Shown one piece after another: positions 7,161 to 21,347 of a stretch of 64,000 nt of DNA; within the stretch, counting starts at the first letter, position 1, and each line of letters opens with the position of its first letter. The stretch covers positions 41,686 through 105,685 of the forward strand of contig DASRFK010000179.1 in the NCBI GenBank assembly GCA_035651635.1. The letters are read 5' to 3'. Under the pieces are notes generated by a model. It saw only the letters and a list, made by a program, of their open reading frames with translations, was not told the DNA's origin and did not search any database. The position numbers and the translations under genes were made by a program. The stretch comes from Verrucomicrobiia bacterium. Its GTDB lineage: Bacteria; Verrucomicrobiota; Verrucomicrobiia; Limisphaerales; UBA8199.

Positions 7161-8054
7161 ATGCAGATTGAAAGCCTAAAAGTCTTCTGTGACCTGGCCG
7201 AGACCGAGAGTTTTACCAAAGCCGCGCAAATCAACCAGGTCACTCAGTCGGCCGTGAGCCAGCAGATCAGCTCGCTCGAGCGGTTGTTCAAGTCGCTGCT
7301 GATCGAGCGCAGCAAAAAACGGTTCCGGCTCACCCGGGAAGGCCAGGTCCTTTACGATTACAGCAAGCAGGTCGTCCACACCTACAACGCGCTTCACCAT
7401 AAGCTCCAGGAAATCAAGGAACTAATTTCGGGAACGATTCGGGTGGCCACCATCTACAGCGTCGGCTTGCACGATCTGCCGCCGTACGTGAAGAAATTCC
7501 TGAAGAACTATCCCACCGTAAACGTCCACGTCGAATATCGGCGCGCCAACCAGGTGTACGAGGATGTCATCGGCAATGTCGTCGACCTGGGCCTGGTGGC
7601 TTATCCGGTGCGGGACAATAAGCTGGAGATTGTCCCCTTGCGCAAAGATCCGCTGGTCTTGATTTGTCACCCGCAACATCCGTTGGCCAAATCCAAAAAC
7701 GTCCGCCTCAAAGCACTTTCCGGGCAAAAATTCATCGGGTTCGAGCCGGATATTCCCACCCGCAAGGCTCTGGATAAAATCCTCAAGGACCACTCCGTCC
7801 AAGTCCAGCATGTGATGGAGTTCGACAACATCGAAACGGTCAAACGCGCGGTCGAGATCGATGCCGGGGTTGCGATCGTCCCACAGGGAACCGTACTGCA
7901 GGAAACCGCCAAAGCCACGCTGGCCCAGGTGGCGCTCGACGATGGCGAGTACTACCGTCCGTTGGCCGCTATTTACAAAAGGAACAAAGTCCTCTCGCCG
8001 GCCATGAAAGAATTCATCTCCACCTTAAAAGAGGAAAAACCTCCGCAAGGTTGA
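7161..8054 (+). CDS. LysR-family transcriptional regulator
   Basis: N-terminal HTH (MQIESLKVFCDLAETESFTKAAQINQVTQSAVSQQISSLE) plus a C-terminal substrate-binding domain. Start moved to the internal ATG at 7161. Confidence 0.85.
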   Translation: MQIESLKVFCDLAETESFTKAAQINQVTQSAVSQQISSLERLFKSLLIERSKKRFRLTREGQVLYDYSKQVVHTYNALHHKLQEIKELISGTIRVATIYSVGLHDLPPYVKKFLKNYPTVNVHVEYRRANQVYEDVIGNVVDLGLVAYPVRDNKLEIVPLRKDPLVLICHPQHPLAKSKNVRLKALSGQKFIGFEPDIPTRKALDKILKDHSVQVQHVMEFDNIETVKRAVEIDAGVAIVPQGTVLQETAKATLAQVALDDGEYYRPLAAIYKRNKVLSPAMKEFISTLKEEKPPQG

Positions 8055-8213
8055 GAAGTGGAAACGTTCAAACGCGGCAACGTGAAAATGCTAAAACGGA
8101 ATCAGCCCACTTTGGCAGCGCCAAGAAGTGCCCCGACGCATGGCAGAAGATTCGCTCGCGCGATTTTGACGTTTCAACGCTCTAACGTCTTCCCGTTTTA
8201 AAGCCTCAACGTC

Positions 8214-9323
8214 TCACTTAAGGTTCACCGGGTTCAGCGGCTTGAGGTCCTTGGGCAGGAATAACCCGTTCTTACGGATGAGTTCGTCGTCGAACCAGAT
8301 CTCCCCTCCGCCCCACTCGGGGCGCTGGATCAGGACCATGTCCCAATGGACGGCGGAACGGTTGCCGTTGTCGCATTCCTTGTAGGCCTGGCCGGGCGTG
8401 AGATGCAGGGAGCCGGCAATCTTCTCGTCGAAGAGGATATCGCACATCGGATTCAGAATGTACGGGTTGAAGCCCAGCGAGAACTCACCGGTAAAACGGG
8501 CGCCGGCGTCCGTATCCAAAATCTCATTCAGGCGTTTGGTATTATTTGAAGTGGCCTCCACTACCCGTCCGTCCTTGAACCCAAGACGCACATTCTCAAA
8601 CCTCGTTCCGGAATAAAGCGTGGGCGTGTTGAACTGAATCCGGCCGTTGATCGAATTCTTCACCGGACACGAGAAAACTTCGCCATCGGGAATATTGCGG
8701 TCGCCTTTGCACATTTTGGCCCCGATTCCCTTGAGGCTGAAGCTCAGGTCGGTGCCGGGCCCTTTAATTTGGACCCGGTTGGCTTTTCTCATGCGCCGTT
8801 CGAGCGGCACCATGGCTCGGGCCATTTTGCGATAATCCATCGTGCACACCTCGAAGTACAGATTCTCGAACGCTTCGGTGCTCATCCCGGCGCCCTGGGC
8901 CATGCTCGGCGTGGGCCAGCGCAGCACGCACCAGCGCGTTTTATTGACCCGCTGGTTGAGCACCGGGCGGGTCAGCCGCGAATACAACCCCATGCGGTCC
9001 GGCGGCACATCCGCATTTTCATTGGCATTGGCGCTCCCGCGAATCGCAATGTAAGCCTGCATCTTTCGCATCCGGGCCAGTTCGATATCTCTCACCAGCC
9101 GGGCGTGGTCCGCGTCGGTTTCCCGCAGCAACTCACGGGTCACCCGCGTATGCCGCACTTCGACCAGCGGCACCGCTCCGGCGTCTCGCGCGGTCCGGAC
9201 TAACTCGACGGTGAATTCGTCCGGCACATCGATCATATCGAGCAACACGCGCTCCCCCTTTTTCAGGGCCGTGGAATACTCGACCAGCAGCCGAGCCAAT
9301 TTCTTGTAACGCGGATCTGTCAT
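8214..9323 (-). CDS. Aminopeptidase, M29 family (AmpS/PepS-like, aminopeptidase T)
   Basis: 369 aa with overall similarity to the thermophilic aminopeptidase T family (segments ...EFSLGFNP..., ...HWDMVL...). Confidence 0.8.
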   Translation of the reverse strand: MTDPRYKKLARLLVEYSTALKKGERVLLDMIDVPDEFTVELVRTARDAGAVPLVEVRHTRVTRELLRETDADHARLVRDIELARMRKMQAYIAIRGSANANENADVPPDRMGLYSRLTRPVLNQRVNKTRWCVLRWPTPSMAQGAGMSTEAFENLYFEVCTMDYRKMARAMVPLERRMRKANRVQIKGPGTDLSFSLKGIGAKMCKGDRNIPDGEVFSCPVKNSINGRIQFNTPTLYSGTRFENVRLGFKDGRVVEATSNNTKRLNEILDTDAGARFTGEFSLGFNPYILNPMCDILFDEKIAGSLHLTPGQAYKECDNGNRSAVHWDMVLIQRPEWGGGEIWFDDELIRKNGLFLPKDLKPLNPVNLK

Positions 9324-9506
9324 GCCTTGCCCCGAAAGTTAGTGAATTCCCCTCGTTTGTCGAGCGCCGCTTCACTCCAACTGCGCGGAGGCAAAGCCCC
9401 CCCGATGATGAATGCTCCACCGTTCATATCCGGCGGCGACGAAGGGCCCATTAGCCTGGCGTGGAACCAGCGTGGTGTCTCCCAATTGGCTGATGCTATT
9501 TCTTAC

Positions 9507-9562
9507 AGGAGGAAACAGAGAAAACAGAGTTTTTTTGTCTCTGTTCCCTCTGTTTTCTCCTG
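9507..9562. repeat. Long imperfect inverted repeat (AGGAGGAAACAGAGAAAACAGAG-T7G-TCTCTGTTCCCTCTGTTTTCTCCT) in the divergent aminopeptidase/arsR region
   Basis: Seen directly. ~23-nt arms around a T7 loop. Function unknown. Confidence 0.4.
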
Positions 9563-9621
9563 TTCAATTGAGAGCAGAGCAAGCGGAGCAGCAGGTGGTT
9601 GACAACGGACTTAAGGGGCGG

Positions 9622-9649
9622 CTATATTTCGTTTAATGGCGAAATATAG
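9622..9649. promoter_or_regulatory. Candidate ArsR/SmtB operator: perfect 10-bp inverted repeat CTATATTTCG-N8-CGAAATATAG ending 10 bp before the arsR start
   Basis: Seen directly. ArsR-family repressors bind dyad sites overlapping their own promoter. Confidence 0.5.
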
Positions 9650-9658
9650 AAAAACGAT

Positions 9659-10024
9659 ATGCGCGACTTGCTGAAGATCACCAAGGCGCTGGCGGATGAA
9701 AACCGCATTCGCGCGCTGCTGGCTTTGCGAGAAGGCGAATTGTGCGCCTGCCAAATCACCGAACTGTTCGGGTTGGCGCCTTCAACCATGTCGAAGCACA
9801 TGTCGATTCTTTACCAGGCTGGATTGGTGGACTCCCGCAAGGAGGGGCGGTGGATTTATTTCCGGTTAGCTGATGGGGAGGCCCCAGCCGTGGTGAAAAA
9901 GGCAATCGATTGGATTTGCAAAGCCGCCGCAGACCAGCCTCGAGTTCAGAAGGATACGAAGCAATTGAAAAAAATCATGAGGATGAACCCGAGCGAAATT
10001 TGCAAGCGGCAATGTTGCCCATGA
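9659..10024 (+). CDS. arsR: ArsR-family arsenic-responsive transcriptional repressor
   Basis: wHTH protein with the ELCACQITE metal(loid)-binding Cys pair motif. First gene of the arsR-arsC-acr3 cluster. Confidence 0.85.
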
Positions 10025-10464
10025 AAAAACCCACCATTCTGATTCTCTGCACGGGGAACTCGTGCCGCAGCCATCTGGCCGAGGGCGTGCTGCAAAAGGC
10101 TCTGGGCGAACGTTATGACGTGCAAAGCGCGGGGTCGAAGCCGGCTGGCTACGTGCATCCTTTGGCGATTCGGGTCATGAACGAGCTCGGGATCGACATT
10201 TCCGGCCACCACTCAAAGCATCTCGAACAATTTTTAAACCAACCCGTGGAAACAGTGATTACGGTTTGTGGTAATGCCGACCAGGTCTGTCCGGTCTTTC
10301 CCGGGCAGGTGAACCGTTATCACTGGGGGTTTGACGATCCTGCCCAGGCCACGGGAACTGACGAGGAAAAATTGGCCGTGTTCCGGCGAGTGCGGGATGA
10401 GATCAAGAAAGTATTCGAGGCCTACGCGGCCGGACGACGTGACCAGGCCAAATCGCTAAAATGA
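10021..10464 (+). CDS. arsC: Arsenate reductase, LMW-PTP family (thioredoxin-coupled type)
   Basis: CX5R P-loop ([14 protein letters not shown]) plus the downstream Cys pair ([10 protein letters not shown]). The likely start (ATG at 10021 or 10012) overlaps the arsR stop. Confidence 0.85.
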
Positions 10465-11576
10465 GCACCTCATCTGTCGCCGCACAGGAGTTTCCCGTTC
10501 CTGTGAAAAAGCGCCTCGCCTTTTTTGAGCGCTACCTGACCCTCTGGGTCCTGCTCTGCATGGTCGTCGGCGTCGCGTTTGGCAAAGTATTTCCAGACCT
10601 GACCGCGACTCTCAGCAAACTGGAATTCGGCCAGGGATCGCAAGTGAACGTGTCCATTGGAATTCTACTCTGGCTGATGATCTACCCGATGATGCTGAAG
10701 GTGGATTTCGGTTCGATTGGCGGCATTGCCCGCAGACCCAAAGGGCTGCTCGTCACATTGCTGGTAAATTGGCTGATAAAACCTTTCAGCATGGCGCTGC
10801 TGGCCTGGGTCTTCATGCAGCACGTGTTTGCCGCGTGGATCGACCCTGAAACGGCGAGGAACTACACGGCCGGGTTGATTATCCTTGCTGCAGCTCCTTG
10901 CACGGCCATGGTTTTTGTTTGGTCCTACCTTACCGAGGGCGACCCGGCTTATACGCTGGTTCAGGTCGCCGTGAATGATTTGATCATGCTCATCGCCTTT
11001 GCGCCCATCGTGATGTTCCTATGCGGTGTCGCCCACGTGGTTGTGCCAGCAAAGGTCCTCATCACCTCGGTCGTCGTGTTCATCGTGATCCCGCTGACTG
11101 CCGGGTGGCTTACGCGAACGGTCTTGCTGAAATCCCAGGGCCAGGCGTGGTTCGAACAGAACTTCCTTCCCAAGTTTCACCCAGTGATGATTGGCGCGCT
11201 TCTGCTCACGCTGGTGCTTATCTTCGCTTTTCAATCCGAAAACCTCATCAAACGGTGGATCGCCGTGCTGCTCATCGCCGTGCCGATCGTCATCCAAGTG
11301 TACTTTAATTCAGGCCTGGCGTACCTGTTGATGCGGCTGCTGCGCGTCGAACATAACGTCGCTTCCCCAGGCGCGCTGATTGGTGCCAGCAACTTTTTTG
11401 AGCTGGCCGTCGCCGTGGCCATTACCCTCTTTGGCGCCAATTCTGGCGCCGCATTGGCCACCGTAGTCGGAGTGCTCGTGGAAGTCCCGGTAATGCTCTC
11501 AGTCTGCAGCTTCTGCAACCGGACCCGTCATTGGTTTCCAGGACAATTGGACTCGGCCTCCGCGCCCCCGGGCTAG
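10461..11576 (+). CDS. acr3: Arsenite efflux permease, ACR3 family
   Basis: 371-aa polytopic membrane protein matching the ACR3/ArsB-BART family ([17 protein letters not shown]...). 4-nt overlap with the arsC stop. Confidence 0.9.
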
Positions 11577-11657
11577 TCGGCGACCCCTGGCGCAGCGTTC
11601 TTGCCGCACCGTGCACCGGAGGTCGGCACTGCGTTCCGACCCCTCTGGGTACTGTCT

Positions 11658-11677
11658 GGCAACCCTCGCGGGTTGCC
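11658..11677. promoter_or_regulatory. Perfect 8-bp inverted repeat GGCAACCC-TCGC-GGGTTGCC between acr3 and phoU
   Basis: Seen directly. Could be a weak terminator hairpin (no T-run) or an operator. Confidence 0.3.
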
Positions 11678-11759
11678 TGCCAAACCCATGGACCCTCGCA
11701 ACAGATCCAATCCATCAACCCGCTTTACAAATGTTGAAGGAAGTTCATGTGACGAACGC

Positions 11760-12989
11760 ATGACATCAGCGGCTTTGGAATCGCCCACAAATGTAACAAA
11801 ACATCCGAGATTAGCCGGCATAAATTCATGGCCTTGGCACATTCGGCATGATAAGAATTCAACCCGATTGAATCAGCGTTCACATCTTGAAGAATCGTTG
11901 CAGCGTGATATCGATGCCATCCGCGCCAAAGTCACCGAGATGGCCGGGCTAAGCGAAAGAGCGCTCAAAGCCAGCCTGGAAAGCCTGACGGAGGGAAACC
12001 GGCAATTGGCCTATTCCATCATTCTTCGGGACCGGTATATCGATGAACTGGAGACGGAACTGGATCGGCTCTGCCTGCAATTCCTGGTGCGCCAGCAGCC
12101 GGTAGCCGGACATTTGCGATTGGTCTTTGCGACTATTCTGATCAACCGGGAACTGGAGCGCATTGGGGACTACGCGGAGAGCATTGCGCGTCAGGTCCTG
12201 TTGTTGGGAACCCTTGAGGCTCGGCCAAATTACGGCAAGATCATCGAGCTTGGCAATTTGTCCGTTCACATGCTTCAGGATGCGGTACGGTCGTTTCTGC
12301 AACAGGACGGTGATCTCGCGGCCCGCACCATCCCGATTGAAGAGCGAGCCAACTCCATGCGTACCGCGATCAATGCCGAGCTGAAAGAGTTGGGCGACTC
12401 CGGCAAGCTCCCGCTGGCCGCGGTCGAGCCGCTGATGACCATTGCCCGGCGCCTGGAGCGCGTCACCGATCAGGCCAAGAACCTTTGCGAAGAGGTCCTC
12501 TACATGTGCACGGGTGAATTCGCCAAGCACAAGGGCACCGGCGAGTTCCGGATCCTCTTCTTTGATGCGGAGAACAAATGCTTGAGCCAAATGGCCGAAG
12601 CCATCGCCAAATCACTGCGGCTGCAGGGTTTTGTTTTCAGCAGCGCGGGAATTACGCCGCAACCCGTGGATGCGCGCCTGGTGGATTTTATGGCCACCAA
12701 AGGCATCGATATCTCCGCCCAGTCCGCCAAGTCGATCGAACAAGTGCAGCCGTGGGAGCAGTACCAAGTCATTGTGGCCCTCGGGACTCAGGCTCAGGAA
12801 ACCCTCCCTCCCCGCCCGTTCAAGCCGGTCATTTTTGCGTGGTCCATCACGGATCCATCGGGGGCGAGAGGTGAGCCGGAGGTTGTTCGTGCCGCGTTCG
12901 AATCGGCTTACCAATCTCTGGAATCCCAAATCCGCGAATTGATGGCGGCAGTTTTGCTGGAACCTCAACAGCCAGAATTCAAATTATGA
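11760..12989 (+). CDS. phoU: PhoU phosphate-signalling regulator fused to a C-terminal catalytically degenerate LMW-PTP/ArsC-like domain
   Basis: N-terminal ~230 aa are PhoU-like (two repeats with the ERIGDYAE / ERVTDQA motifs). C-terminal ~150 aa align to LMW-PTP (ILFFDAENKCLSQMAEA vs consensus CTGNTCRSPMAEA), with the nucleophile Cys replaced by Asp and the Arg by Leu. Start placed at ATG 11760; the ORF could begin earlier (11601). Confidence 0.75.
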   Translation: MTSAALESPTNVTKHPRLAGINSWPWHIRHDKNSTRLNQRSHLEESLQRDIDAIRAKVTEMAGLSERALKASLESLTEGNRQLAYSIILRDRYIDELETELDRLCLQFLVRQQPVAGHLRLVFATILINRELERIGDYAESIARQVLLLGTLEARPNYGKIIELGNLSVHMLQDAVRSFLQQDGDLAARTIPIEERANSMRTAINAELKELGDSGKLPLAAVEPLMTIARRLERVTDQAKNLCEEVLYMCTGEFAKHKGTGEFRILFFDAENKCLSQMAEAIAKSLRLQGFVFSSAGITPQPVDARLVDFMATKGIDISAQSAKSIEQVQPWEQYQVIVALGTQAQETLPPRPFKPVIFAWSITDPSGARGEPEVVRAAFESAYQSLESQIRELMAAVLLEPQQPEFKL

Positions 12990-13921
12990 TCCATTACACA
13001 ACAAATTCATCGCTTCTGAAGCTTGGAATTCTGTCCGCGTCTCTCGCCTTTTGCCTGCTGCCCATGGGTTGCGGCAAAAGTGGAAACAGCACCGGCACTG
13101 GCTCAGGCCAAAAGGTTACCCTGCAGAATAAAGGGTCCGACACCATGGTGAACCTAGCTCAGGCTTGGGCCGAGGAATACAAGAAAGTTGCGCCGGACGT
13201 CGAGGTCGAAGTGTCCGGTGGCGGTTCGGGAGTGGGCATCGCGGCGCTGGTCAAAGGAACCATCGATATCGCCAATGCCAGCCGCAACATGAAGCCGGAG
13301 GAGATCGAGGAGGCCAAGAAGAACACGGGCAAGGAGCCCAAGGAGATTGTCGTCGGCTATGATGCTCTGGCCATTTACGTTCACAAATCCAATCCCCTGG
13401 ATGAAATCACCCTGGATCAACTGGCCCAGATTTACGCCGAAGGCGGGAAGATTACCAAATGGTCTGATTTGGGTGTTAAAATCCCCGGCACGGCCAACGA
13501 TGAAATTGTCCGGGTCAGCCGCCAATCGAACTCGGGCACCTATGAGTTCCTGCGCGAGCACGTGCTGAATAAAAGGGATTTCAAGCTCGGCTCGCGGGAT
13601 ATGAACGGCTCGAAAGAAGTGGTCGAGTTGGTCTCCTCGACACCCACGGCCATTGGCTATAGCGGTATGGGCTATGCCACCCCGGCGGTGAAGATGCTTA
13701 AAGTCAAAAAGACGGCCACGGATCCCGCTTACGAGCCAAGCGTCGCCACGGCGTTGGCCAAGACCTACCCCATTGCCCGCACGCTGCAGGTTTACACTCT
13801 CGGCGAGCCCCAGGGCGCGGCCAAGGCCTATATCGATTGGATTCTATCTGATGCGGGCCAAAAAGTGGTTGAAGCCAGCGGCTACGTTCCGCTTCCCGCC
13901 GCGGCACGGATAAAGCCCTGA
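12986..13921 (+). CDS. pstS: Phosphate ABC transporter substrate-binding (lipo)protein PstS
   Basis: Signal peptide with a lipobox-like LPMGC, then the PstS family fold (SGGGSGVGIAAL..., ...IGYSGMGYA...). Confidence 0.85.
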   Translation: MIHYTTNSSLLKLGILSASLAFCLLPMGCGKSGNSTGTGSGQKVTLQNKGSDTMVNLAQAWAEEYKKVAPDVEVEVSGGGSGVGIAALVKGTIDIANASRNMKPEEIEEAKKNTGKEPKEIVVGYDALAIYVHKSNPLDEITLDQLAQIYAEGGKITKWSDLGVKIPGTANDEIVRVSRQSNSGTYEFLREHVLNKRDFKLGSRDMNGSKEVVELVSSTPTAIGYSGMGYATPAVKMLKVKKTATDPAYEPSVATALAKTYPIARTLQVYTLGEPQGAAKAYIDWILSDAGQKVVEASGYVPLPAAARIKP

Positions 13922-13961
13922 CGCCCCGGTAACGGCGGAGACTTTTTCTCGAAGCAAGTGA

Positions 13962-14951
13962 GTGGCCTCGGACGTATTTGTATCGGGCCAAGGCCAACCC
14001 GGAATGAACTCAATCACGCCACCCGAGCCAGCCGAGCGGAGTTTAAACGTCCGGCGGTCTGTGCGGCCTGCCTGGGCCGTGGTCGGTGAACGTGCCCTGG
14101 AATCATTGATTCACCTGTGCGGTGTCAGCGCGATCATTTTCGTGATCGGCATTTTCTTTTTCGTTTTCAAAGAGGCCTTTCCTGTCCTGCTCGGTGGAAA
14201 ATTCAGTTTGAGCCAGTTTCTTTTCAGTGATCAATGGTATCCCACGTCCGAGGTCAACAAGCGGTACGGGGTGCTCGCGATGATCGCCGGAACCTTTAGC
14301 GTAACCGGATTGGCCATGTTGATCGCCGTGCCGTTTGGGCTGGGCGCGGCTATTTTCCTGTCTGAGTTCTGTGGATCCAAAGCGAAGGAAACGCTCAAGA
14401 TCGTCATTGAGTTGCTGGCGGCCATTCCCAGTGTGGTTTGGGGATTTGTGGGTTTGACGGTGATGAGTCGCCTCATCACCAAGTACACCGGCGCTCCGGT
14501 CGGTGTGAATGTTCTTAATGGCGGGATCATCCTGGCGCTGATGAGCGTGCCCATCATCGTGTCCATCGGCGAGGATGCCCTCAAGGCCGTGCCCGATGCT
14601 TACCGCGAAGCCGCTTTGGCCCTGGGCGCCACCCGCTGGCAACTGATCTGCCGCGTCCTGTTGCCGGCGGCAAAAACCGGGCTGCTGGCCGCCGTTCTGC
14701 TCGGCGTCGCCCGCGCCGTGGGGGAAACCATGGCCGTCCTGATGGCCACCGGGCATGCCGTCCATATTCCCCATAGTATCTTGGACTCGGTTCGCACCCT
14801 GACCGCTAACATCGCGGCCGAGCTGGGGGAAGCGCCGGCGAACTCCGTCCATTACCGGGTTTTGTTTCTCACGGGTGTGCTGTTGTTTTTGATGACCTTC
14901 ATCGTCAATCTAACGGCGGATTTAATCGTGCGGGGCACTCGAAGGAGATGA
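13962..14951 (+). CDS. pstC: Phosphate ABC transporter permease PstC
   Basis: Polytopic permease with an EAA-like loop (...ALALGATRWQLI...). Operon position matches. Confidence 0.9.
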   Translation: MASDVFVSGQGQPGMNSITPPEPAERSLNVRRSVRPAWAVVGERALESLIHLCGVSAIIFVIGIFFFVFKEAFPVLLGGKFSLSQFLFSDQWYPTSEVNKRYGVLAMIAGTFSVTGLAMLIAVPFGLGAAIFLSEFCGSKAKETLKIVIELLAAIPSVVWGFVGLTVMSRLITKYTGAPVGVNVLNGGIILALMSVPIIVSIGEDALKAVPDAYREAALALGATRWQLICRVLLPAAKTGLLAAVLLGVARAVGETMAVLMATGHAVHIPHSILDSVRTLTANIAAELGEAPANSVHYRVLFLTGVLLFLMTFIVNLTADLIVRGTRRR

Positions 14952-15853
14952 GCGACCATCCCAACCAGCTTTTTGCCGAGACGTCCTTCGTCCGGCGCAA
15001 GCAGCGACAGGAGGGCGTCGCGAAATGGGTTTTGGGCAGCATGGCAGGACTGATGATCATCCCCTTGGTTTTGATTGTCGGCTACCTGATCGCGCGCGCC
15101 TGGCCATCGCTCAGCCTGAGCTTTATCACCCAAGTGCCCATTCGGGGTATGCGCGAAGGCGGCGTGTGGCCGGCGTTTGTCGGCACGATTTATCTGGTGT
15201 TCCTTTCGCTGGCGGTAGCCGCCCCGATCGGGATCCTGGCGGCGGTTTACCTCAACGAATATGCCCGGGATAACTGGCTTAACCGCCTGATCAACCTGGC
15301 GGTGATCAACCTGGCCGGTGTGCCGAGCATTGTCCACGCCCTGTTTGGGCTGGGCGCATTCGTTTATGCGGCAAAGTTTGGTTACTCGATCATTTCGGCT
15401 TCGCTGACGTTGGCCATCATGACGTTGCCTGTGATCATCGCGAGCACGCGCGAGGCGCTTGCCAGCGTGCCGCGCAATTTCCGGGAGGCCTGTTGGAACG
15501 TAGGGGCCACCCGCTGGCAAACGATCCAAGCCGTCGTCCTGCCTAACGCCATCAGCGGCATTCTGACCGGTGTCATTCTGCAAGTGAGCCGCGCCGCCGG
15601 CGAGACGGCACCGATTATGTTTACCGGCGCGGTCTTCTTCAAGGCGGTCCAGCGAGGCGACCTCTTCCCTTACGCTCTGCATGACCAATGCATGGCCTTG
15701 TCGATGCATCTTTATGTGCTCTCGACCCAAGTGCCCGATGTGAAGGAATCCATTCCCTTCGCCACCGCGGTCGTGTTGTTGGGTTCGGTCCTGCTGGTCA
15801 ATGCCACCGCCATCACGGTGCGGGTGTATCTGCGCTCGCGCAAAAAGTGGTAG
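14948..15853 (+). CDS. pstA: Phosphate ABC transporter permease PstA
   Basis: Permease with the EAxxxxGATRWQ motif. 4-nt overlap with pstC. Confidence 0.9.
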   Translation: MSDHPNQLFAETSFVRRKQRQEGVAKWVLGSMAGLMIIPLVLIVGYLIARAWPSLSLSFITQVPIRGMREGGVWPAFVGTIYLVFLSLAVAAPIGILAAVYLNEYARDNWLNRLINLAVINLAGVPSIVHALFGLGAFVYAAKFGYSIISASLTLAIMTLPVIIASTREALASVPRNFREACWNVGATRWQTIQAVVLPNAISGILTGVILQVSRAAGETAPIMFTGAVFFKAVQRGDLFPYALHDQCMALSMHLYVLSTQVPDVKESIPFATAVVLLGSVLLVNATAITVRVYLRSRKKW

Positions 15854-15879
15854 TGTTCGAGCCGCAAAACCGTGGTCAC

Positions 15880-16641
15880 ATGAGTTCCGAAAAGCACATC
15901 CAGGTTGACGGCCTTCGCCTCTCCTACGGGCCAAAGGAAGTCATTCATGGTATCTCCTTCCATATTCTTCGGAACGAAATCTTCGGCATCATCGGTCCCG
16001 CGCAATCCGGCAAAACCTCGCTCCTGAAGTGCATCAACCGGACGATTGATTTTTCTCCTGAGGCCCGGGTTAGCGGGAGCATCAAAGTCGATGGCCACGA
16101 CGTGCGGGAAACCAAAAGCATTTACGAACTACGCCGCAGGATTGGGATGGTTGCGCCATTGCCGGTCGGCTTGCCGCTCAGCATTTACGATAACGTCGCG
16201 TTCGCTCCCCGGTGCGCCGGCATTCGGCGTAAGGGGGAACTCAACGAGATCGTCGAACAGTGCCTGCACCAGGCAGCCCTCTGGGATGAGGTCAAGGACC
16301 GGCTCGACAGCCTGGGGACCAAGCTTTCCGGCGGCCAGCAACAACGCCTCACCATCGCCCGCGCCCTGTCGCATCAACCGGAGATTCTTTGCCTGGACGA
16401 ATTCTCGATCGCCATCGACCCGGTCACCACCATGCGCATTGAAGACGTTCTCAAGGTGCTCCGCCGGCAGATGACCATCATCCTGGTCACAAATCTCACT
16501 CAGCAGGCCCGGCGTTTGGCCGATCGCACCATGTTCCTTTGGAATGGCGAAATCGTTGAACTCGATCGCAGCGAGGTCGTCTTTTCCGACCGTCCAGGCA
16601 ATCCAAAGACCTACGACTATGTGAACGGCATTTTCGGATGA
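15880..16641 (+). CDS. pstB: Phosphate ABC transporter ATP-binding protein PstB (copy 1)
   Basis: Walker A (GPAQSGKTS), ABC signature (LSGGQQQRL), Walker B (ILCLDE). Start reassigned to ATG 15880, since the longer ORF overlaps pstA. Confidence 0.9.
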   Translation: MSSEKHIQVDGLRLSYGPKEVIHGISFHILRNEIFGIIGPAQSGKTSLLKCINRTIDFSPEARVSGSIKVDGHDVRETKSIYELRRRIGMVAPLPVGLPLSIYDNVAFAPRCAGIRRKGELNEIVEQCLHQAALWDEVKDRLDSLGTKLSGGQQQRLTIARALSHQPEILCLDEFSIAIDPVTTMRIEDVLKVLRRQMTIILVTNLTQQARRLADRTMFLWNGEIVELDRSEVVFSDRPGNPKTYDYVNGIFG

Positions 16642-17414
16642 GCGATTCCCTCCAAAGCGGCATCTCGACCCACAACCTGAATTTGTGGTACGCCAAATTT
16701 CAGGCGTTGATCAATGTAACCGTAAACATCAAGGACGGGTTGATCACCTCGCTGATTGGACCTTCGGGTTGCGGCAAGACCACGCTGCTGCGTTGCTTCA
16801 ACCGGGTCAACGAACGCTACAGTTACGTCACCACCACCGGCCAAATCCGAATTCTGGGCAAAAACATCTACGATCCGGACGTTTCGCTCATTGAGCTGCG
16901 CAAATCAGTAGGCATGGTTTTTCAACGACCCAACCCGCTGCCGATCTCCGTTTACGAAAACGTCGTGTTCGGCTTGCGCATTCACACTCGCGGCCGGGAT
17001 TTGAACCGAGCCAGCCTCGATCAAGCCGTGGAAACATCGCTGACCGAGGTGGGGCTGTGGAAAGATCTCAAAGACCGGCTCCAGGCCAAAGCCACCGGGC
17101 TTCAGCTCGAACAACAACAGAAGCTCTGCATCGCGCGGCTCTTGCCCCTCAAACCTCGAGTGATTCTGATGGATGAACCATGCTCCGCGCTGGATGTGGA
17201 GGGCACCCGCGCGATTGAGGAATTGATGTTCGGGCTGAAGGGCCGCTACACCCTTCTCATCGTCACCCACAATATGGCCCAGGCCCGCCGGGCCAGCGAC
17301 GAGTGCATCTTCATGCTGCTCGGCGAGATGATCGAACACAGCCGGACCGAACAACTCTTCCTCGCTCCAAAACATCCGAAAACCGCCGAATACATTGAAG
17401 GGCGTTACGGATGA
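16638..17414 (+). CDS. pstB: Phosphate ABC transporter ATP-binding protein PstB (copy 2)
   Basis: Walker A (GPSGCGKTT), signature (LQLEQQQKLCIAR), Walker B (VILMDEP). 4-nt overlap with copy 1. Confidence 0.9.
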   Translation: MSDSLQSGISTHNLNLWYAKFQALINVTVNIKDGLITSLIGPSGCGKTTLLRCFNRVNERYSYVTTTGQIRILGKNIYDPDVSLIELRKSVGMVFQRPNPLPISVYENVVFGLRIHTRGRDLNRASLDQAVETSLTEVGLWKDLKDRLQAKATGLQLEQQQKLCIARLLPLKPRVILMDEPCSALDVEGTRAIEELMFGLKGRYTLLIVTHNMAQARRASDECIFMLLGEMIEHSRTEQLFLAPKHPKTAEYIEGRYG

Positions 17415-17431
17415 GCTCAGGGAATTGTTAG

Positions 17432-17590
17432 CAGGTGATCAGGTTTTCAAGTTATCACGACTGAGCTCTCTGGAACTTGTAACATCCCGCGTGGATGAAT
17501 AAAAATAGCCCGGTTCTTCAAGGGTCGCAGCCCGCGCAGACCTCCGGTTAACGCCTTGATAACCTGATACCCTGATAACTTGATAACCCT
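17432..17590. repeat. Two clusters of the GTTATCAN-family octamer repeat (17432-17459 and, on the minus strand, 17554-17590: GTTATCAA GTTATCAG GGTATCAG GTTATCAA)
   Basis: Seen directly. Intergenic region between pstB2 and the ORF6N gene. Confidence 0.55.
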
Positions 17591-17601
17591 CGGTCCACAG
17601 C

Positions 17602-17768
17602 CGCCCTCTGGGATTCCTTGCAGGATGGGGGCTGAAATCCAGAGGAGGTTGGGTTGCCAAGCTCGCGGGCAGACTCTAGTAAGCCAGTTTAGCTTTTGCG
17701 TTCTTGCGCTCCTTCGCGGCAACCTTCTCGCGTTTGCGCAGGCGCGCTCGTGGCGATGAGTTTCAGAA
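17602..17768. repeat. Copy A of a ~165-bp diverged direct duplication of the mazG 3' end plus downstream sequence (partner at 18662-18819)
   Basis: Blocks such as CTCYGGGATTCCTTSCAGGATGGG, AGWSYCTAGTAAGCCAGTT and CGCGGCAACCTTCTCSCGTTTGCGC.AGGCGCGCTCGTGGCG.TGAGTTTCAGA are shared in order between the two loci. Confidence 0.7.
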
Positions 17769-18347
17769 GGCGAACTTCATCGCCGGAGTGTGGATTTTGG
17801 TTTGGCGCGGTGAGGGTCGGCATCCTTTGACGTGGAAGCCGATTTCGCGCGGCGGCTGTTGAGGAATGGACGGATTCATGAGTTGCCGAATGGCTTCGAA
17901 AAGGGAGCGGATGGCGTCGTCATGACCTTCGATGCGTTTTTCCAGTTCGGAGAGCTTGCGAGCGAGCTCGACGTGGCTGCCAAGCACCCGGCGGAGTTGG
18001 ACGAAGGCGCGCATGATGGCGATGTTGACCTGAACGGCGCGGTCGCTGTGGAGCACGGTGGAGAGCATGGCGACTCCTTGCTCCGTGAAGGCGAACGGGA
18101 GATACTTGAAATGCTGTCCGCGCCTTAAGCTTCCAAATTGGAATCTTAAAGCCTCGGACTCTTCGGGCGTAAGCTGGAACATGAAATCCGGCGGAAACCG
18201 GCCGAGGTTGCGCTTGACCGCTTTGTTGAGGTTGCCCGTCGAAACGCCATACAAGATGGCCAAGTCCCGATCGAGCATTACTTTCTCGCCTCGGAGCAAG
18301 TAGATTGTTCTTTGGATTCGCTCGATCGGAATAAGTGAGGATTGCAT
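17763..18347 (-). CDS. ORF6N (KilA-N-related) domain DNA-binding protein
   Basis: 194 aa. N-terminal ORF6N-like region ([49 protein letters not shown]...) with a coiled C-terminal half. Lies inside the segment bracketed by the mazG-3'-end duplication. Confidence 0.7.
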
Positions 18348-18351
18348 ATAA

Positions 18352-18372
18352 GGTTATCAAGTCATCAGGTGG
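18352..18372. repeat. GTTATCAA-GTCATCAG octamer pair immediately upstream of the ORF6N start
   Basis: Same octamer family as the other loci. Confidence 0.45.
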
Positions 18373-18661
18373 GAGCGTGGGGTTTTGGGCGGGCTGTGTC
18401 GAATGCCGATACATGATGATTTCTGTCGATTCTGGGCGGGGTGCAATCATTTCTGTGGTCATTAACCGGAGGTCCGCGCTGCCTTGCCTCCGGCTGCTAT
18501 CTGGCAGTCCTGACCGGTTACAGGCTTAGCTGCGGGTGGAACTGAAATTTCTGGTGAGATTAGGTAAGAAACGGGCTGGAGTATCGGCCGTCCCTTCGGG
18601 ACTTGGGGGTTTTCCGATGCCACAACCCAGCGCTGAAGCGCTGGGCTATTTTCGGTCATCC

Positions 18662-18819
18662 CTCCGGGATTCCTTCCAGGATGGGATTCAGACGATGTTG
18701 GATTACCCAGTCCTCAGGGCAGAGCCTAGTAAGCCAGTTCACCTTTTGCGTTCTTTGCGCTCTTTCGCGGCAACCTTCTCCCGTTTGCGCCAGGCGCGCT
18801 CGTGGCGCTGAGTTTCAGA
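18662..18819. repeat. Copy B of the ~165-bp duplication; overlaps the 3' end of mazG
   Basis: See copy A at 17602-17768. Confidence 0.7.
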
Positions 18820-19416
18820 GCGCAACAGGTCTTCGGCGGACCAGCCATTCTTCTGCGCCTGGGCCGCTAATGAGAAAAGTTGGCGGCCAAGTTCGCGGCG
18901 GTTCAGCGTTTTCCGCGGCGGTGCCACGTTATCGAGCTTCGCTCGCCGCGCTTTTTTGAGGAGCTTTTCGGCGCGCAACAGAGCCGGCAGATGTTTGGGC
19001 ACGCCGTCCAGGGCGGAGGCGCGGGCGTGGCGTGTGCCGTGTTTCTCCGCGCGCTTGATCTTTTCCCAATTGGCCCAAACCTGGTCGACGTCTTTGACTT
19101 TGACGTCCCCAAAAACGTGAGGATGGCGGCGGATGAGCTTTTGCGCAATGCGCCGGGCGACCTTTTCGAAATCGAACGCGCCGCGTTCCTTCGCCAATTG
19201 GCAATGAAAGACGACCTGCAACAACAGGTCGCCGAGTTCTTCTTCCAGCTCGTGGTCATCGTCGGATTCGATGGCATCCATCAACTCGTAGGCTTCCTCA
19301 ACGGCATGCCAGCGCAAGGATCGATGATCCTGCTCGCGGTCCCAGGGACACCCCTTGGGGCTGCGCAGTTTGGCCATAATCCTGATCAGTTCATCGATCG
19401 CTGCTTTTCTTCTCAT
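18739..19416 (-). CDS. mazG: Nucleoside triphosphate pyrophosphohydrolase MazG
   Basis: 225 aa with the MazG EExxE/ELGDLL motifs (EEAYELMDAIE...ELEEELGDLLLQVVFH) and a Lys/Arg-rich C-terminal tail. Confidence 0.85.
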   Translation of the reverse strand: MRRKAAIDELIRIMAKLRSPKGCPWDREQDHRSLRWHAVEEAYELMDAIESDDDHELEEELGDLLLQVVFHCQLAKERGAFDFEKVARRIAQKLIRRHPHVFGDVKVKDVDQVWANWEKIKRAEKHGTRHARASALDGVPKHLPALLRAEKLLKKARRAKLDNVAPPRKTLNRRELGRQLFSLAAQAQKNGWSAEDLLRSETQRHERAWRKREKVAAKERKERKR

Positions 19417-19714
19417 GCAATTGTTTAAGAGCGTGTTTTAGTCCCGTCTTCAGCCGTAACGATGCAGTTCAACCACGGATGGACACGGATGAACACTGAT
19501 AAAATGAGCGGATTGCCATCAACTTGGCTGCCTGAGCTCGCATCACCTTTAGGTGAACGGAGCAGCCTTGCCCGAGATAGCTTCTGCCCCTCTCTGATCC
19601 GTGCGAATCGGTGTTCATCGGTGGTTTTTAGCTGCATGGTTTGGGCTTTAGGTGGCCCGGCGCCGAAACCGCCTGAAGGCGGGATTCCAAACCCCCAGGC
19701 GCAATCGAAACCGA

Positions 19715-20806
19715 TTAAAGTATCACCAGGTCATCGCGGTGTACCACTTCCACCCGCTTCAAAGCGCCGGCCCGAATCTCGCTCGAGCCAAAGCCGGCGA
19801 TCCCGCGGGCAAATTCCATTCCATCGGCATCGCAAATTCGGACCACTTCGCCGGCGTTGAACTCGCCGTCACAGCGAGCAATGCCTGGGGGCAAGAGGCT
19901 CTTGCCATTTTCGCGCAAGGCTTTTCGGGCGCCGGGATCCACGAAGAGCGTGCCTTTTGGGTGATGAAAAAAAGCGATCCACCGTTTCCGGCTCTGCATC
20001 CGGCTGGTTTGGGGCACGAACAAGGTGCCTTCGTCCTGCCCGGCCAGCACGCGAGCCAATGCGTCCTTTTTTTTGCCCGACGCAATGACCAGAGGAATGC
20101 CCGAGCGCACCACAATTTTGGCGGCCTGGATCTTGGAAGCCATGCCGCCGACGGCCGTGGCGCTGTCGGTGCCGCCGGCGATTTTTTCGAGGGCACCGTC
20201 GATCCGGTCGACCAACGGGATGGTTTTGGAATCAACCTTGCCAAAATTTTGCAAAACGCCGTCGACGGTGGTCAGGATCACCAATAGATCCGCCGGCAAT
20301 AACGAAGCGACCAGGGCGGAGAGCTTGTCGTTGTCACCGAATTGCAGTTCGGTCGACGAGACGACATCGTTTTCATTAATAATCGGCACGATGCCATGTC
20401 GCAAAAGTGTGACCAGGGTGTTGCGGGCATTCAGGTGGCGTTCGTGGTGCTCGAGATCGTCGTGAGTCAGGAGGATCTGGGCTACCGACAAACCAAAAGC
20501 GCTGAACAGCTCCTCGTAGCTGGCCATTAACCGTGATTGGCCGATGGCCGCGCAAGCCTGCAGCTCGGCCAATTCGGCAGGCCTGCGGGTGTGGCCCAAA
20601 ACGCCCATGCCGGCCCCCACTGCGCCGGAAGAAACCAGTAGCATTTCCTTGCCAGCCTGGCGCTGCTGGGCGATTTGCTCGACCAGCTGTTTCATCTGGT
20701 TTACGTCGGGGCGTTTCTGGGCGTCAGTCAGAACACCAGTGCCGAGCTTGACGACGATGCGGGCGGCGTTTTTGAGCAGTTTAGAACGCACAGGGTTTGG
20801 TAACAA
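19715..20806 (-). CDS. proB: Glutamate 5-kinase (with C-terminal PUA domain)
   Basis: 363 aa. Amino-acid kinase fold (VVKLGTGVLT...SSGAVGAGM) plus a C-terminal PUA segment. Confidence 0.9.
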   Translation of the reverse strand: MLPNPVRSKLLKNAARIVVKLGTGVLTDAQKRPDVNQMKQLVEQIAQQRQAGKEMLLVSSGAVGAGMGVLGHTRRPAELAELQACAAIGQSRLMASYEELFSAFGLSVAQILLTHDDLEHHERHLNARNTLVTLLRHGIVPIINENDVVSSTELQFGDNDKLSALVASLLPADLLVILTTVDGVLQNFGKVDSKTIPLVDRIDGALEKIAGGTDSATAVGGMASKIQAAKIVVRSGIPLVIASGKKKDALARVLAGQDEGTLFVPQTSRMQSRKRWIAFFHHPKGTLFVDPGARKALRENGKSLLPPGIARCDGEFNAGEVVRICDADGMEFARGIAGFGSSEIRAGALKRVEVVHRDDLVIL

Positions 20807-20843
20807 ACCCGCCGAGAAGTGTCGAGGCGTCGTTGGCCAAATC

Positions 20844-20902
20844 GGTTATCAGGTTGTCAGGTTATCAGGTTGTCAGGTTATCAGGTTATCAGGTAGTCAA
20901 GG
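20844..20902. repeat. Tandem array of 7 octamer units (TRTCAGGT / GGTTATCA register) in the divergent proB / phosphoesterase promoter region
   Basis: ggttatcaggttgtcaggttatcaggttgtcaggttatcaggttatcaggtagtcaagg. The largest array of the GTTATCAN family in the window. Confidence 0.65.
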
Positions 20903-21347
20903 AGGCGGCAGGAGATGTTCCAATGATGTCACCCAAAAGTCACTGCTTCGGAGTGAGCATCTATGAGGGTACGGCGTCTAAGTTGACGGGATGAAACATA
21001 ATCCGATGCGAACGATAGCCCTGACGTATCCGGGCTTCCACGCCCTGCCGTCCGGGGTGAAGCGCCTGCTTGTGCTTTCAGAGAGCTTCTTTTTTGAAGA
21101 GGAAGGGGGCCGGCCGGGAATTGCGCGCGAACCGCAAAGGAACTGCGCCGCGAAGGCCTGTGCGAACCAGGCGGTCGCCCACCCTTTTCGAACCCGGAAT
21201 GGCTCAACTAATGACGCGGCACCGCGCGGTTGAACCTCGCGATTGTTCCGGTTAGCCTTCTCATGTTCCCGACGTATTGGTCTCAGGAAATCCGAAGGCA
21301 AATAAATCCGCTAACCGGAAGCCGGATGCGCGGAACGCGACCCGATC

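Follow-up and report, generated by a model that had tools for sequence, protein, structure and literature searches.

A PhoU protein fused to an ArsC-derived pseudoenzyme domain in the operon of a Pst importer with two complementarily degenerate ATPases

Introduction

Why should a PhoU protein carry a C-terminal domain that has the fold of an arsenate reductase and has lost the residues needed for its chemistry? The question is raised by a gene in a 64,000-nucleotide stretch of a Verrucomicrobiia genome (contig DASRFK010000179.1, positions 41,686 to 105,685 of the forward strand; this whole stretch is called the window, and coordinates are those of the window). The gene, termed phoU::arsC*, encodes PhoU joined to a domain of the low-molecular-weight protein tyrosine phosphatase (LMW-PTP)/ArsC family (LMWPc in Pfam). 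It heads a pst phosphate transport operon directly 3' of an arsR-arsC-acr3 operon, as a first-pass annotation made from the sequence had described. That annotation took the C-terminal domain to be catalytically dead while likely retaining an oxyanion-binding fold, and proposed a phosphate/arsenate sensing or discrimination module coupling the two pathways. Analysis of the protein, its operon and its relatives confirmed that the fusion is real, one intact gene with both domains supported by profile and fold, and that it heads a distinct Pst importer subtype in which two PstB ATPases, PstB1 and PstB2, carry complementary defects.

Results

The fusion protein is a PhoU with an ArsC-like pseudoenzyme domain

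In the open reading frames (ORFs) of the window, a single uninterrupted frame (11601-12989, + strand) encodes the whole fusion, with the following features.

11868-12989, + strand: phoU::arsC*, 373 amino acids from the probable TTG start, stop codon TGA at 12987-12989
11868-12521, + strand: PhoU domain, two PF01895 repeats, six-helix bundle, Foldseek matches 1t72/4q25
12552-12944, + strand: ArsC-like (LMWPc) pseudoenzyme domain, residues 265-395 in ATG-11760 numbering
12564-12587, + strand: degenerate P-loop D269-A-E-N-K-C-L275-S276, which replaces C-x5-R-S
12852-12857, + strand: retained Asp-Pro (DP; D365-P366), the general-acid position of ArsC and LMW-PTP, D in 113/120 and P in 115/120 homologues

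Translation from ATG 11760 gives a product of 409 amino acids, and residue numbers follow this version. The true start is probably TTG 11868 rather than ATG 11760, since NCBI calls the identical protein (P0002, 100% identity) at 373 amino acids, the modal length of homologues is 372 amino acids, the 36 extra residues from ATG 11760 show no conservation and this ATG sits within a Pho-box-like site (11749-11766).

The Pfam PhoU family matched the protein twice (E 9.4e-35), and the N-terminal half passed the cut-off of the NCBIfam phoU_full equivalog TIGR02135 (158.7 against 130.25). An AlphaFold2 model generated with 119 homologues had a mean predicted local distance difference test (pLDDT) score of 90.1. 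When its N-terminal part was searched with Foldseek, template modelling (TM) scores of 0.94-0.96 were obtained for 1t72/4q25, and of 0.90-0.96, with root-mean-square deviations (rmsd) of 1.4-1.8, for 1t72, 4q25 and 1xwm. An E/D-x-x-x-D metal motif can be read from the translation in each PhoU repeat (ELERIGD and RLERVTD), and residues E97, R98, G100, D101, E197 and D201 are invariant in 119 homologues. On every testable count, namely repeats, fold, metal motifs and pst linkage, the window protein is a PhoU. It shares with canonical PhoU (E. coli; 1t72 from Aquifex, 4q25 from P. aeruginosa, 1sum from Thermotoga) the two repeats, the six-helix bundle, both E-x-x-x-D motifs and linkage to pstSCAB, but adds approximately 150 C-terminal residues of ArsC fold, is encoded first rather than last in its operon, belongs to a separate clade and is partnered by PstB1/PstB2 rather than a PstB homodimer. 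No second PhoU is encoded within the 64-kb window.

The C-terminal domain is LMW-PTP-like, as the first-pass annotation had supposed, and on this profile and structure searches agree. Pfam LMWPc (PF01451) matched residues 265-395 (E 5.7e-10; score 40 bits, gathering threshold 23.2), and in the Foldseek search the corresponding part of the model matched the B. subtilis ArsC structure 1jl3 (TM 0.87, rmsd 1.7) and the pI258 structure 1ljl (TM 0.91). Among more specific profiles this half of the protein best resembles the arsC_pI258_fam TIGR02691, although the score of 57.3 lies far below the cut-off of 174.3, and TIGR02689 likewise scored 46.5 against a cut-off of 157.6, so that neither equivalog level is reached.

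The P-loop reads F-F-D269-A-E-N272-K-C274-L275-S276-Q-M-A-E, D269 and L275 being specified by codons 12564-12566 and 12582-12584. An ungapped alignment of this loop was obtained with the true ArsC, whose gene lies 2.5 kb upstream (BLASTP, E 2e-12, 29% identity over 122 residues), and the loop also aligns with solved ArsC structures (best 2l17, E 2.4e-10). Both alignments bear out the substitutions noted at first pass: relative to ArsC, Cys10 is replaced by Asp269 and Arg16 by Leu275. The Cys82/Cys89 redox relay is also missing, the aligned segment VIVALGTQAQETLPP being devoid of Cys. With the Cys nucleophile and the Arg both lost, activity as a Cys-phosphatase or arsenate reductase is impossible, again as predicted.

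The degenerate P-loop is nevertheless conserved. Among the 120 best homologues, D269 is retained in 115, N272 in 114, C274 in 106, L275 in 115 and S276 in 103, followed by Q277 in 117, M278 in 114, A279 in 119 and E280 in 118. Asp at the nucleophile position was invariant in 61/61 fused loci recovered by a genome scan, the pattern for which contained L[SG]QMAE. Conserved positions of the domain cluster in two places: the loops that follow strands 1 to 4 and make up the old active-site face, and one side of the final helix. Ratios of non-synonymous to synonymous substitution rates (dN/dS), calculated for pairs with unsaturated synonymous sites, ranged from 0.09 to 0.30 in the ArsC-like domain, as against 0.04-0.12 in the PhoU domain, indicating that the former is under clear purifying selection, somewhat relaxed relative to the PhoU half. 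An enzyme fold has been kept, its catalytic residues have been lost and selection persists, and the domain is a pseudoenzyme by this definition; as the LMWPc fold is present but the defining catalytic features are absent, it is referred to as an ArsC-like pseudoenzyme domain and not as ArsC. Pseudophosphatases such as the dead PTP domains of STYX type similarly keep a catalytic fold under selection without the nucleophile, although this comparison is by analogy only.

In both sequence and structure the best match is to the thioredoxin-coupled ArsC proteins (S. aureus pI258, 1ljl; B. subtilis, 1jl3; Synechocystis, 2l17), with which the domain shares its fold (TM 0.87-0.91) and the motifs N-x-C-x-S-Q-M-A-E, SAG, GIDIS and DP. 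It differs from them in the Cys10 to Asp and Arg16 to Leu replacements and the loss of Cys82/Cys89, and in being neither a stand-alone protein nor encoded in an ars operon.

The fusion gene heads a pst operon encoding two complementarily degenerate ATPases

Downstream of the fusion gene the operon continues as follows, with NCBIfam scores given against their cut-offs.

12986-13921, + strand: pstS, lipoprotein-type phosphate-binding protein (TIGR02136, 250.6 above 206.6)
13962-14951, + strand: pstC (TIGR02138, 287.8 above 196.45)
14948-15853, + strand: pstA (TIGR00974, 262.3 above 193.45)
15880-16641, + strand: pstB1, degenerate ATPase (TIGR00972, 267.4 below 343.2)
16638-17414, + strand: pstB2, ATPase with canonical catalytic motifs and a degenerate signature (TIGR00972, 316.7 below 343.2)

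The stop codon of phoU::arsC* overlaps the pstS start (ATGA, 12986-12989), suggesting translational coupling, and its own start overlaps no upstream gene. From the family membership of PstS, PstC and PstA, together with Pho-box-like sites, the operon is predicted to transport phosphate.

PstB1 and PstB2 are approximately 35% identical, and a homodimeric canonical PstB is not what the window operon encodes. In PstB1 the Q-loop Gln is replaced by Pro (MVAPLPVG; canonical MVFQKSNP), the D-loop is altered (IAID), the H-loop His is replaced by Asn (VTNL) and Walker B has an altered context (LDEFS), all four elements being intact in PstB2. The signature motif shows the reverse, with LSGGQ intact in PstB1 and degenerate in PstB2 (LQLEQ in the window, and also LSLEE or LSLDQ in relatives), whilst Walker A is intact in both. 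In an ATP-binding cassette (ABC) transporter the two subunits share each ATP site, one supplying the catalytic motifs and its partner the signature motif, so that complementary decay of this kind leaves one consensus site (PstB2 catalytic motifs with the PstB1 signature) and one degenerate site. One degenerate ATP site is also a feature of CFTR, TAP1/2 and TM287/288, but these belong to a different class, being exporters where Pst is a type I importer, and serve as an analogy only. The same pattern, PstB1 then PstB2, was present in every complete locus (113 PstB sequences inspected; loci L001-L063, L066, L068 and L151), and canonical PstBs encoded in second pst operons of the same loci (L024, L025, L031 and L046) have all motifs intact. 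The tandem pstB1-pstB2 genes of E. faecalis (Firmicutes) likewise place two neighbouring PstB paralogues that differ in role within a single pst operon, but the two proteins there are approximately 60% identical with Walker A, LSGGQ as well as the H-loop intact in both (PMC12096839), whereas the window pair is far more divergent and complementarily degenerate.

Tested in both directions, the fusion co-occurs strictly with the PstB1/PstB2 pair. For the reverse test metagenomes were scanned with the PstB1 motifs DEFSIA[IV]D and LVTNLxQQ, giving more than 571 loci, of which 80 were kept; all 25 kept loci with enough upstream sequence contained the fusion. The PstB1-type loci show the family to be abundant in soil, sediment and freshwater metagenomes. 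In most phyla the gene order is phoU::arsC*-pstS-pstC-pstA-pstB1-pstB2, and in Gammaproteobacteria it is pstS-phoU::arsC*-pstC-pstA-pstB1-pstB2, the fusion gene being first in the pst operon of all non-gammaproteobacterial relatives. Within 8 kb, at least 11 loci also encode a canonical PhoU, a canonical pstSCAB or both, and a second, canonical PhoU alongside indicates that the fusion is a dedicated paralogue and not the sole PhoU of the cell. On one metagenome contig (L130, 1-9200) two PstB1/PstB2-type operons lie in tandem, and an extra pstS and the PhoU::ArsC* gene precede the second copy.

Distribution of the fusion

The 120 best matches in a whole-protein search were of 348-409 amino acids with 60-85% identity, 118 of them contained both PF01895 and PF01451, and those with a named source came from Verrucomicrobiae or Limisphaerales. 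A wider range was obtained from the genome scan, in which a set with a single genome for each GTDB species was queried with the C-terminal domain alone. Of the 63 loci found, 61 were PhoU fusions within pst operons, originating from Verrucomicrobiota, Acidobacteriota, Polyangia, KSB1, unclassified bacteria and Gammaproteobacteria (Sedimenticolaceae, Halieaceae, Chromatiales and Thiodiazotropha), although some of the taxonomic assignments, 'Bifidobacteriaceae' for locus L016 being one, appear to be binning errors. The full-length domain is kept across at least five phyla at 30-65% identity, with approximately 86 complete loci available. When the C-terminal domain alone was used in a word-indexed protein search, just truncated fragments of the fusion and a few stand-alone LMWPc proteins were returned.

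In 176 of 189 fused proteins, P0235 among them, 12 residues separate the nucleophile position from the C-terminal His of PhoU; in P0327 the figure is 15 (P0235 and P0327 are considered below). Junction spacing was entertained as proof of a single fusion event, but the argument is weakened as the K-H motif is itself the PhoU C-terminus and the P0327 linker is three residues longer.

Automatic annotation labels the fusion plain 'PhoU' or 'phosphate transport system protein', and the open-access literature searched held nothing specific about either a PhoU-LMWPc fusion or a degenerate PstB pair. Domain databases show the architecture, yet it is apparently undescribed.

Relatives suggest a stepwise loss of arsenate reductase residues

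When 1.84 billion representatives were searched exhaustively with the C-terminal domain, 1432 matches were obtained, 138 of them at E <= 1e-10, and P-loop states were surveyed in these and in the neighbours of P0235. States are given as the residues at the nucleophile and Arg positions. Amongst fused proteins D..L is common, as is D..R (30 of 48 fused homologues of P0235), with D..A, D..T, D..V, D..I, D..F, D..C, D..Q, G..R, S..R, S..L and G..G scattered and a single case of C..I (P0189). Loss of Arg has occurred many times over, the substitutes being mainly hydrophobic or small (L, A, T, V, I, F, C, Q), and several distant fused branches have lost the DP motif too.

Two fused proteins, P0235 and P0327, retain the canonical C-x5-R-S together with Cys82, Cys89 and DP. 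The P0235 gene (L064, 2977-4077) is from a 'Deltaproteobacteria' metagenome-assembled genome, and that of P0327 (L150, 7427-8527) follows phoB-phoR-x-pstS-pstC-pstA-pstB, where x is a gene without assignment. These proteins have the same two-domain architecture as the window fusion, P0235 with the same junction spacing, and have been seen in databases only. They differ from it in their intact catalytic residues and in gene position, since both genes are last in ordinary pst operons, after a single canonical PstB with all motifs intact. The D..R, C..I and D..L forms, on the other hand, all head PstB1/PstB2 operons.

In a neighbour-joining tree of PhoU domains (65 sequences, 211 columns, 200 bootstrap replicates) the window protein falls in a clade separate from canonical PhoU. 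All non-C..R fusions group in one clade with 90% bootstrap support, P0235 and P0327 are basal to it, the Asp clade has D..R forms as its basal members, and Arg is lost several times within the tree. This arrangement suggests that the domain was co-opted and its catalysis lost stepwise, in the order C..R to D..R to D..L. The simplest history would be that PhoU first acquired an active ArsC while encoded last in an ordinary operon, after a canonical pstSCAB; that on the branch leading to the main clade Cys was replaced by Asp, pstB was duplicated with asymmetric decay and the gene moved to the operon head; and that Arg and then DP were lost repeatedly afterwards. The early fused ArsC could plausibly have reduced arsenate entering through Pst, and P0235 and P0327 may still represent an arsenate reductase tethered to a phosphate importer. 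A link to arsenate, as suggested at first pass, is supported as a historical one, through these basal relatives with canonical ArsC fused to PhoU.

Some LMWPc proteins not fused to PhoU have a C-x5-L-S P-loop (CADNSVLSQMAE, CAHNADLSQMAE), in which Cys is kept and Arg lost; these are P0136, P0137 (139 amino acids, stand-alone) and L060 at approximately 8001-8414. They may constitute another non-canonical branch of the ArsC family.

The neighbouring ars operon and a putative Pho promoter

The ars operon upstream of the fusion gene is real and canonical, with arsR at 9659-10024, arsC extending to 10464 and acr3 at 10461-11576. Among approximately 86 related loci, however, only two (L016 and L122) have an ars gene within 8 kb. 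A conserved ars linkage was on this basis rejected. Arsenic islands place ars genes beside pst/phoU, and arsenate and phosphate overlap functionally, but those islands are built on aio arsenite-oxidase genes with an ordinary PhoU (PMC3834237), and the window relatives lack a conserved ars neighbourhood.

Between acr3 and the fusion gene lies a candidate regulatory site.

11749-11766, - strand: Pho-box-like dimer ATGTCATgcgtTCGTCAC, 3 mismatches, 119 nucleotides before the TTG start

The first-pass annotation had suggested looking for a Pho box here. Strong sites were found upstream of relatives, and the window copy is weak. In relatives, three or four TTGT(A/C)AC heptamers at 11-bp spacing occur about 90-130 nucleotides before the start, for example TTGTCACggaaTTGTCACaaatGCGACACcgatCCGTAAC in L001, with repeats of the heptamer seen about 60-210 nucleotides upstream of the operon in L001-L006, L014, L015, L019, L021, L023, L030, L053 and others; this is the arrangement of a classical PhoB box. 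The dimer TTGTMAC-N4-TTGTMAC with two or fewer mismatches was present in 22 of 58 operon-upstream regions, against none of 280 control stretches of coding sequence taken from the same loci. Some of these relatives had supplied the pattern, and for them the test is partly circular, though many matches are in distant loci. The window site is not significant by itself, as the dimer pattern with three or fewer mismatches has 5 matches in the window against 8.6 expected by chance. Its credibility derives from its position and from enrichment in relatives, rather than its own score: at -119 it falls inside the range of the relatives (-113 to -128), four of which also have the site on the minus strand.

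These sites point to a separate Pho-regulated promoter between acr3 and the fusion gene and to an operon probably switched on by PhoB under phosphate limitation. With such a site in place, physical coupling of the two pathways looks incidental. A terminator scan between acr3 and the fusion gene gave no match, and the interval 11577-11700 does not fold significantly better than shuffled sequence (z -1.68); as no terminator is predicted, transcription may read through from the ars operon. An Rfam scan of 9000-22000 found no riboswitch or leader near the fusion gene. An imperfect 13-bp inverted repeat (TGTCTGGCAACCC / GGGTTGCCTGCCA, 4-nucleotide loop) without a T-run is present at 11653-11682, 77 nucleotides after the acr3 stop codon.

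Pho-box-like matches were also seen elsewhere in the window. One, ATGTCACccaaAAGTCAC at 20926-20943 (+ strand, 3 mismatches), lies in the gap before ORF 21348-24077, which encodes a 909 amino acid protein with a beta-propeller and a Phosphoesterase-family (PF04185) domain that may be a Pho-regulon phosphatase. Two more, at 20331 and 20398, fall within a gene on the opposite strand, whose product combines amino-acid kinase and PUA domains and resembles glutamate 5-kinase ProB; these two probably arose by chance.

Other features of the window

Directly downstream of pstB2 an ORF6N-domain protein (PF10543) is encoded at 17763-18347 (- strand). The ORF6N domain is typical of antirepressor-like proteins of phages and mobile elements, and this gene may hint at a mobile-element boundary. 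Between it and a mazG-like gene is a match to the Rfam Acido-Lenti-1 RNA (RF01687) at 18626-18671 (+ strand; 57.8 bits against a gathering score of 37, E 4e-11).

Discussion

The reading that is favoured here, with belief and doubt about evenly balanced, is that the fusion protein is a dedicated PhoU paralogue in which an ArsC-derived pseudoenzyme serves an asymmetric Pst transporter in a non-catalytic role, as a regulatory or docking module. The protein would be made together with the transporter, and its PhoU half would bind the PstB dimer and restrain or report transport, as PhoU does elsewhere; E. coli PhoU is cited as binding PstB (Gardner et al. 2014, as cited in PMC12976172). The ArsC-like half would perform no chemistry. 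Asp269 would most likely fill the anion hole of the P-loop, a cradle of backbone amides, in place of the Cys thiolate or a bound oxyanion and so stabilise the fold, which would explain why this Asp and its hydrogen-bond partner Ser276 are conserved, why Arg is dispensable and why its replacements are mostly hydrophobic or small. The former active-site face, partly hydrophobic by virtue of Leu275, would then act as a docking or regulatory surface, giving specificity for the PstB1/PstB2 dimer and insulating the system from the canonical Pst and PhoU that are also encoded in many of these genomes. A specificity or regulatory module is the most economical interpretation because the association with PstB1/PstB2 holds in both directions and canonical PhoU/Pst paralogues are present.

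Several points weigh against this interpretation. Contact of the ArsC-like domain with PstB1, PstB2 or another partner is a proposal, and placement of Asp in the anion hole derives from structural reasoning rather than observation. The predicted TM (pTM) score of the AlphaFold2 model is 0.66, which leaves the relative orientation of the two domains undefined. A conserved active-site face fits the binding of a small ligand equally well, and the fusion and PstB1/PstB2 could be found together through common descent from a single mobile operon rather than through functional dependence. The genome scan, with Leu fixed in its pattern, gives no independent evidence that Leu is conserved; monophyly of all fusions has 51% support in a neighbour-joining tree of approximately 210 columns; and all relatives are from uncultured sources, that is metagenomes, metagenome-assembled genomes or single-cell genomes.

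A bolder form of this interpretation is offered tentatively, as possible rather than probable. PhoU::ArsC* with PstB1/PstB2 would be an undescribed regulatory class of type I ABC importer, in which the pseudoenzyme is the built-in allosteric partner of the degenerate, non-hydrolytic site and exerts an asymmetric control over the rate of transport or over Pho signalling, possibly still responding to a ligand in the cytoplasm, and the family would record the stepwise conversion of an arsenate-detoxifying enzyme, tethered to the phosphate importer, into a regulator.

The strongest competitor, though we think it unlikely, is the model of the first-pass annotation, in which the dead P-loop binds phosphate or arsenate, signals its occupancy to PhoU and thereby tunes Pst/Pho activity or discriminates between oxyanions. 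The domain has the fold of an oxyanion enzyme and true ArsC ancestors, it keeps the P-loop backbone, Asn272, Ser276 and Asp-Pro, and the former active-site face is its most conserved surface. Arg is also kept in a large sister group (D-x5-R in 30 of the 48 P0235 relatives), S-x5-R forms resemble the classical Cys-to-Ser substrate-trapping mutants, and the signal sensed by PhoU and PhoR is still unsettled (PMC12976172). The window protein itself lacks both main anion determinants, having a carboxylate at the nucleophile position and Leu for Arg. Moreover, the many losses of Arg, and of DP in several branches, suggest that anion binding is not the selected function, and ars adjacency is found in just two of approximately 86 loci. 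The D..R and S..R relatives could well bind anions, and the D..L form of the window appears a poor candidate. The first-pass claim of a retained oxyanion-binding fold stands as to the fold, which Foldseek recovers, and is doubtful as to sensing, given the carboxylate at the anion position and the repeatedly lost Arg.

It is improbable that the domain is a functionless relic, a decaying ArsC remnant kept because its removal would destabilise PhoU. Catalytic residues have decayed in many different ways across the family and dN/dS is 1.5 to 4 times that of the PhoU half, as such a remnant would predict, but values of 0.09-0.30 represent purifying selection, a full-length domain is retained across the phyla at 30-65% identity and its conserved positions gather on the former active-site face and along one side of the C-terminal helix.

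Residual or new catalysis is very improbable. Asp269 would here act as nucleophile or phosphoryl acceptor, making the domain an Asp-based P-loop phosphatase or phosphotransfer module for a phosphorylated small molecule or a protein linked to phosphate signalling, for which its conservation (115/120 and 61/61) and the retention of Arg and the general-acid position in D-x5-R forms may be cited; a Cys-to-Asp mutant of PTP1B reportedly has weak residual activity. The window protein lacks Arg16, essential to transition-state binding in all known LMWPc members, there is no extra acidic cluster for a metal, and the Arg and DP positions drift across the clade.

Finally, the chance that an assembly or frameshift artefact has joined separate phoU and arsC genes, the case that the first-pass annotation named against itself, is negligible, with nothing found in its favour, since the identical protein occurs in independent sources (JGI, Logan, ENA and NCBI), the frame is continuous, hundreds of homologues have the same junction and the taxonomic survey places the same fusion in at least five phyla.

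It has yet to be settled how PhoU couples Pst to phosphate signalling and which signal it senses (PMC12976172), and the fusion family amounts to a natural experiment on this question, with PhoU permanently joined to an oxyanion-enzyme fold. It pairs the PhoU fusion with a transporter of non-equivalent ATP sites, and it spans intermediates from catalytically intact to dead. If the ArsC-like domain does dock on PstB1, the family would offer a concrete way to study both the interface of PhoU with PstB and the role that degenerate ATP sites play in importers. Fusions whose ArsC is intact suggest, in turn, that arsenate leaking in through Pst is reduced by some bacteria at its point of entry.

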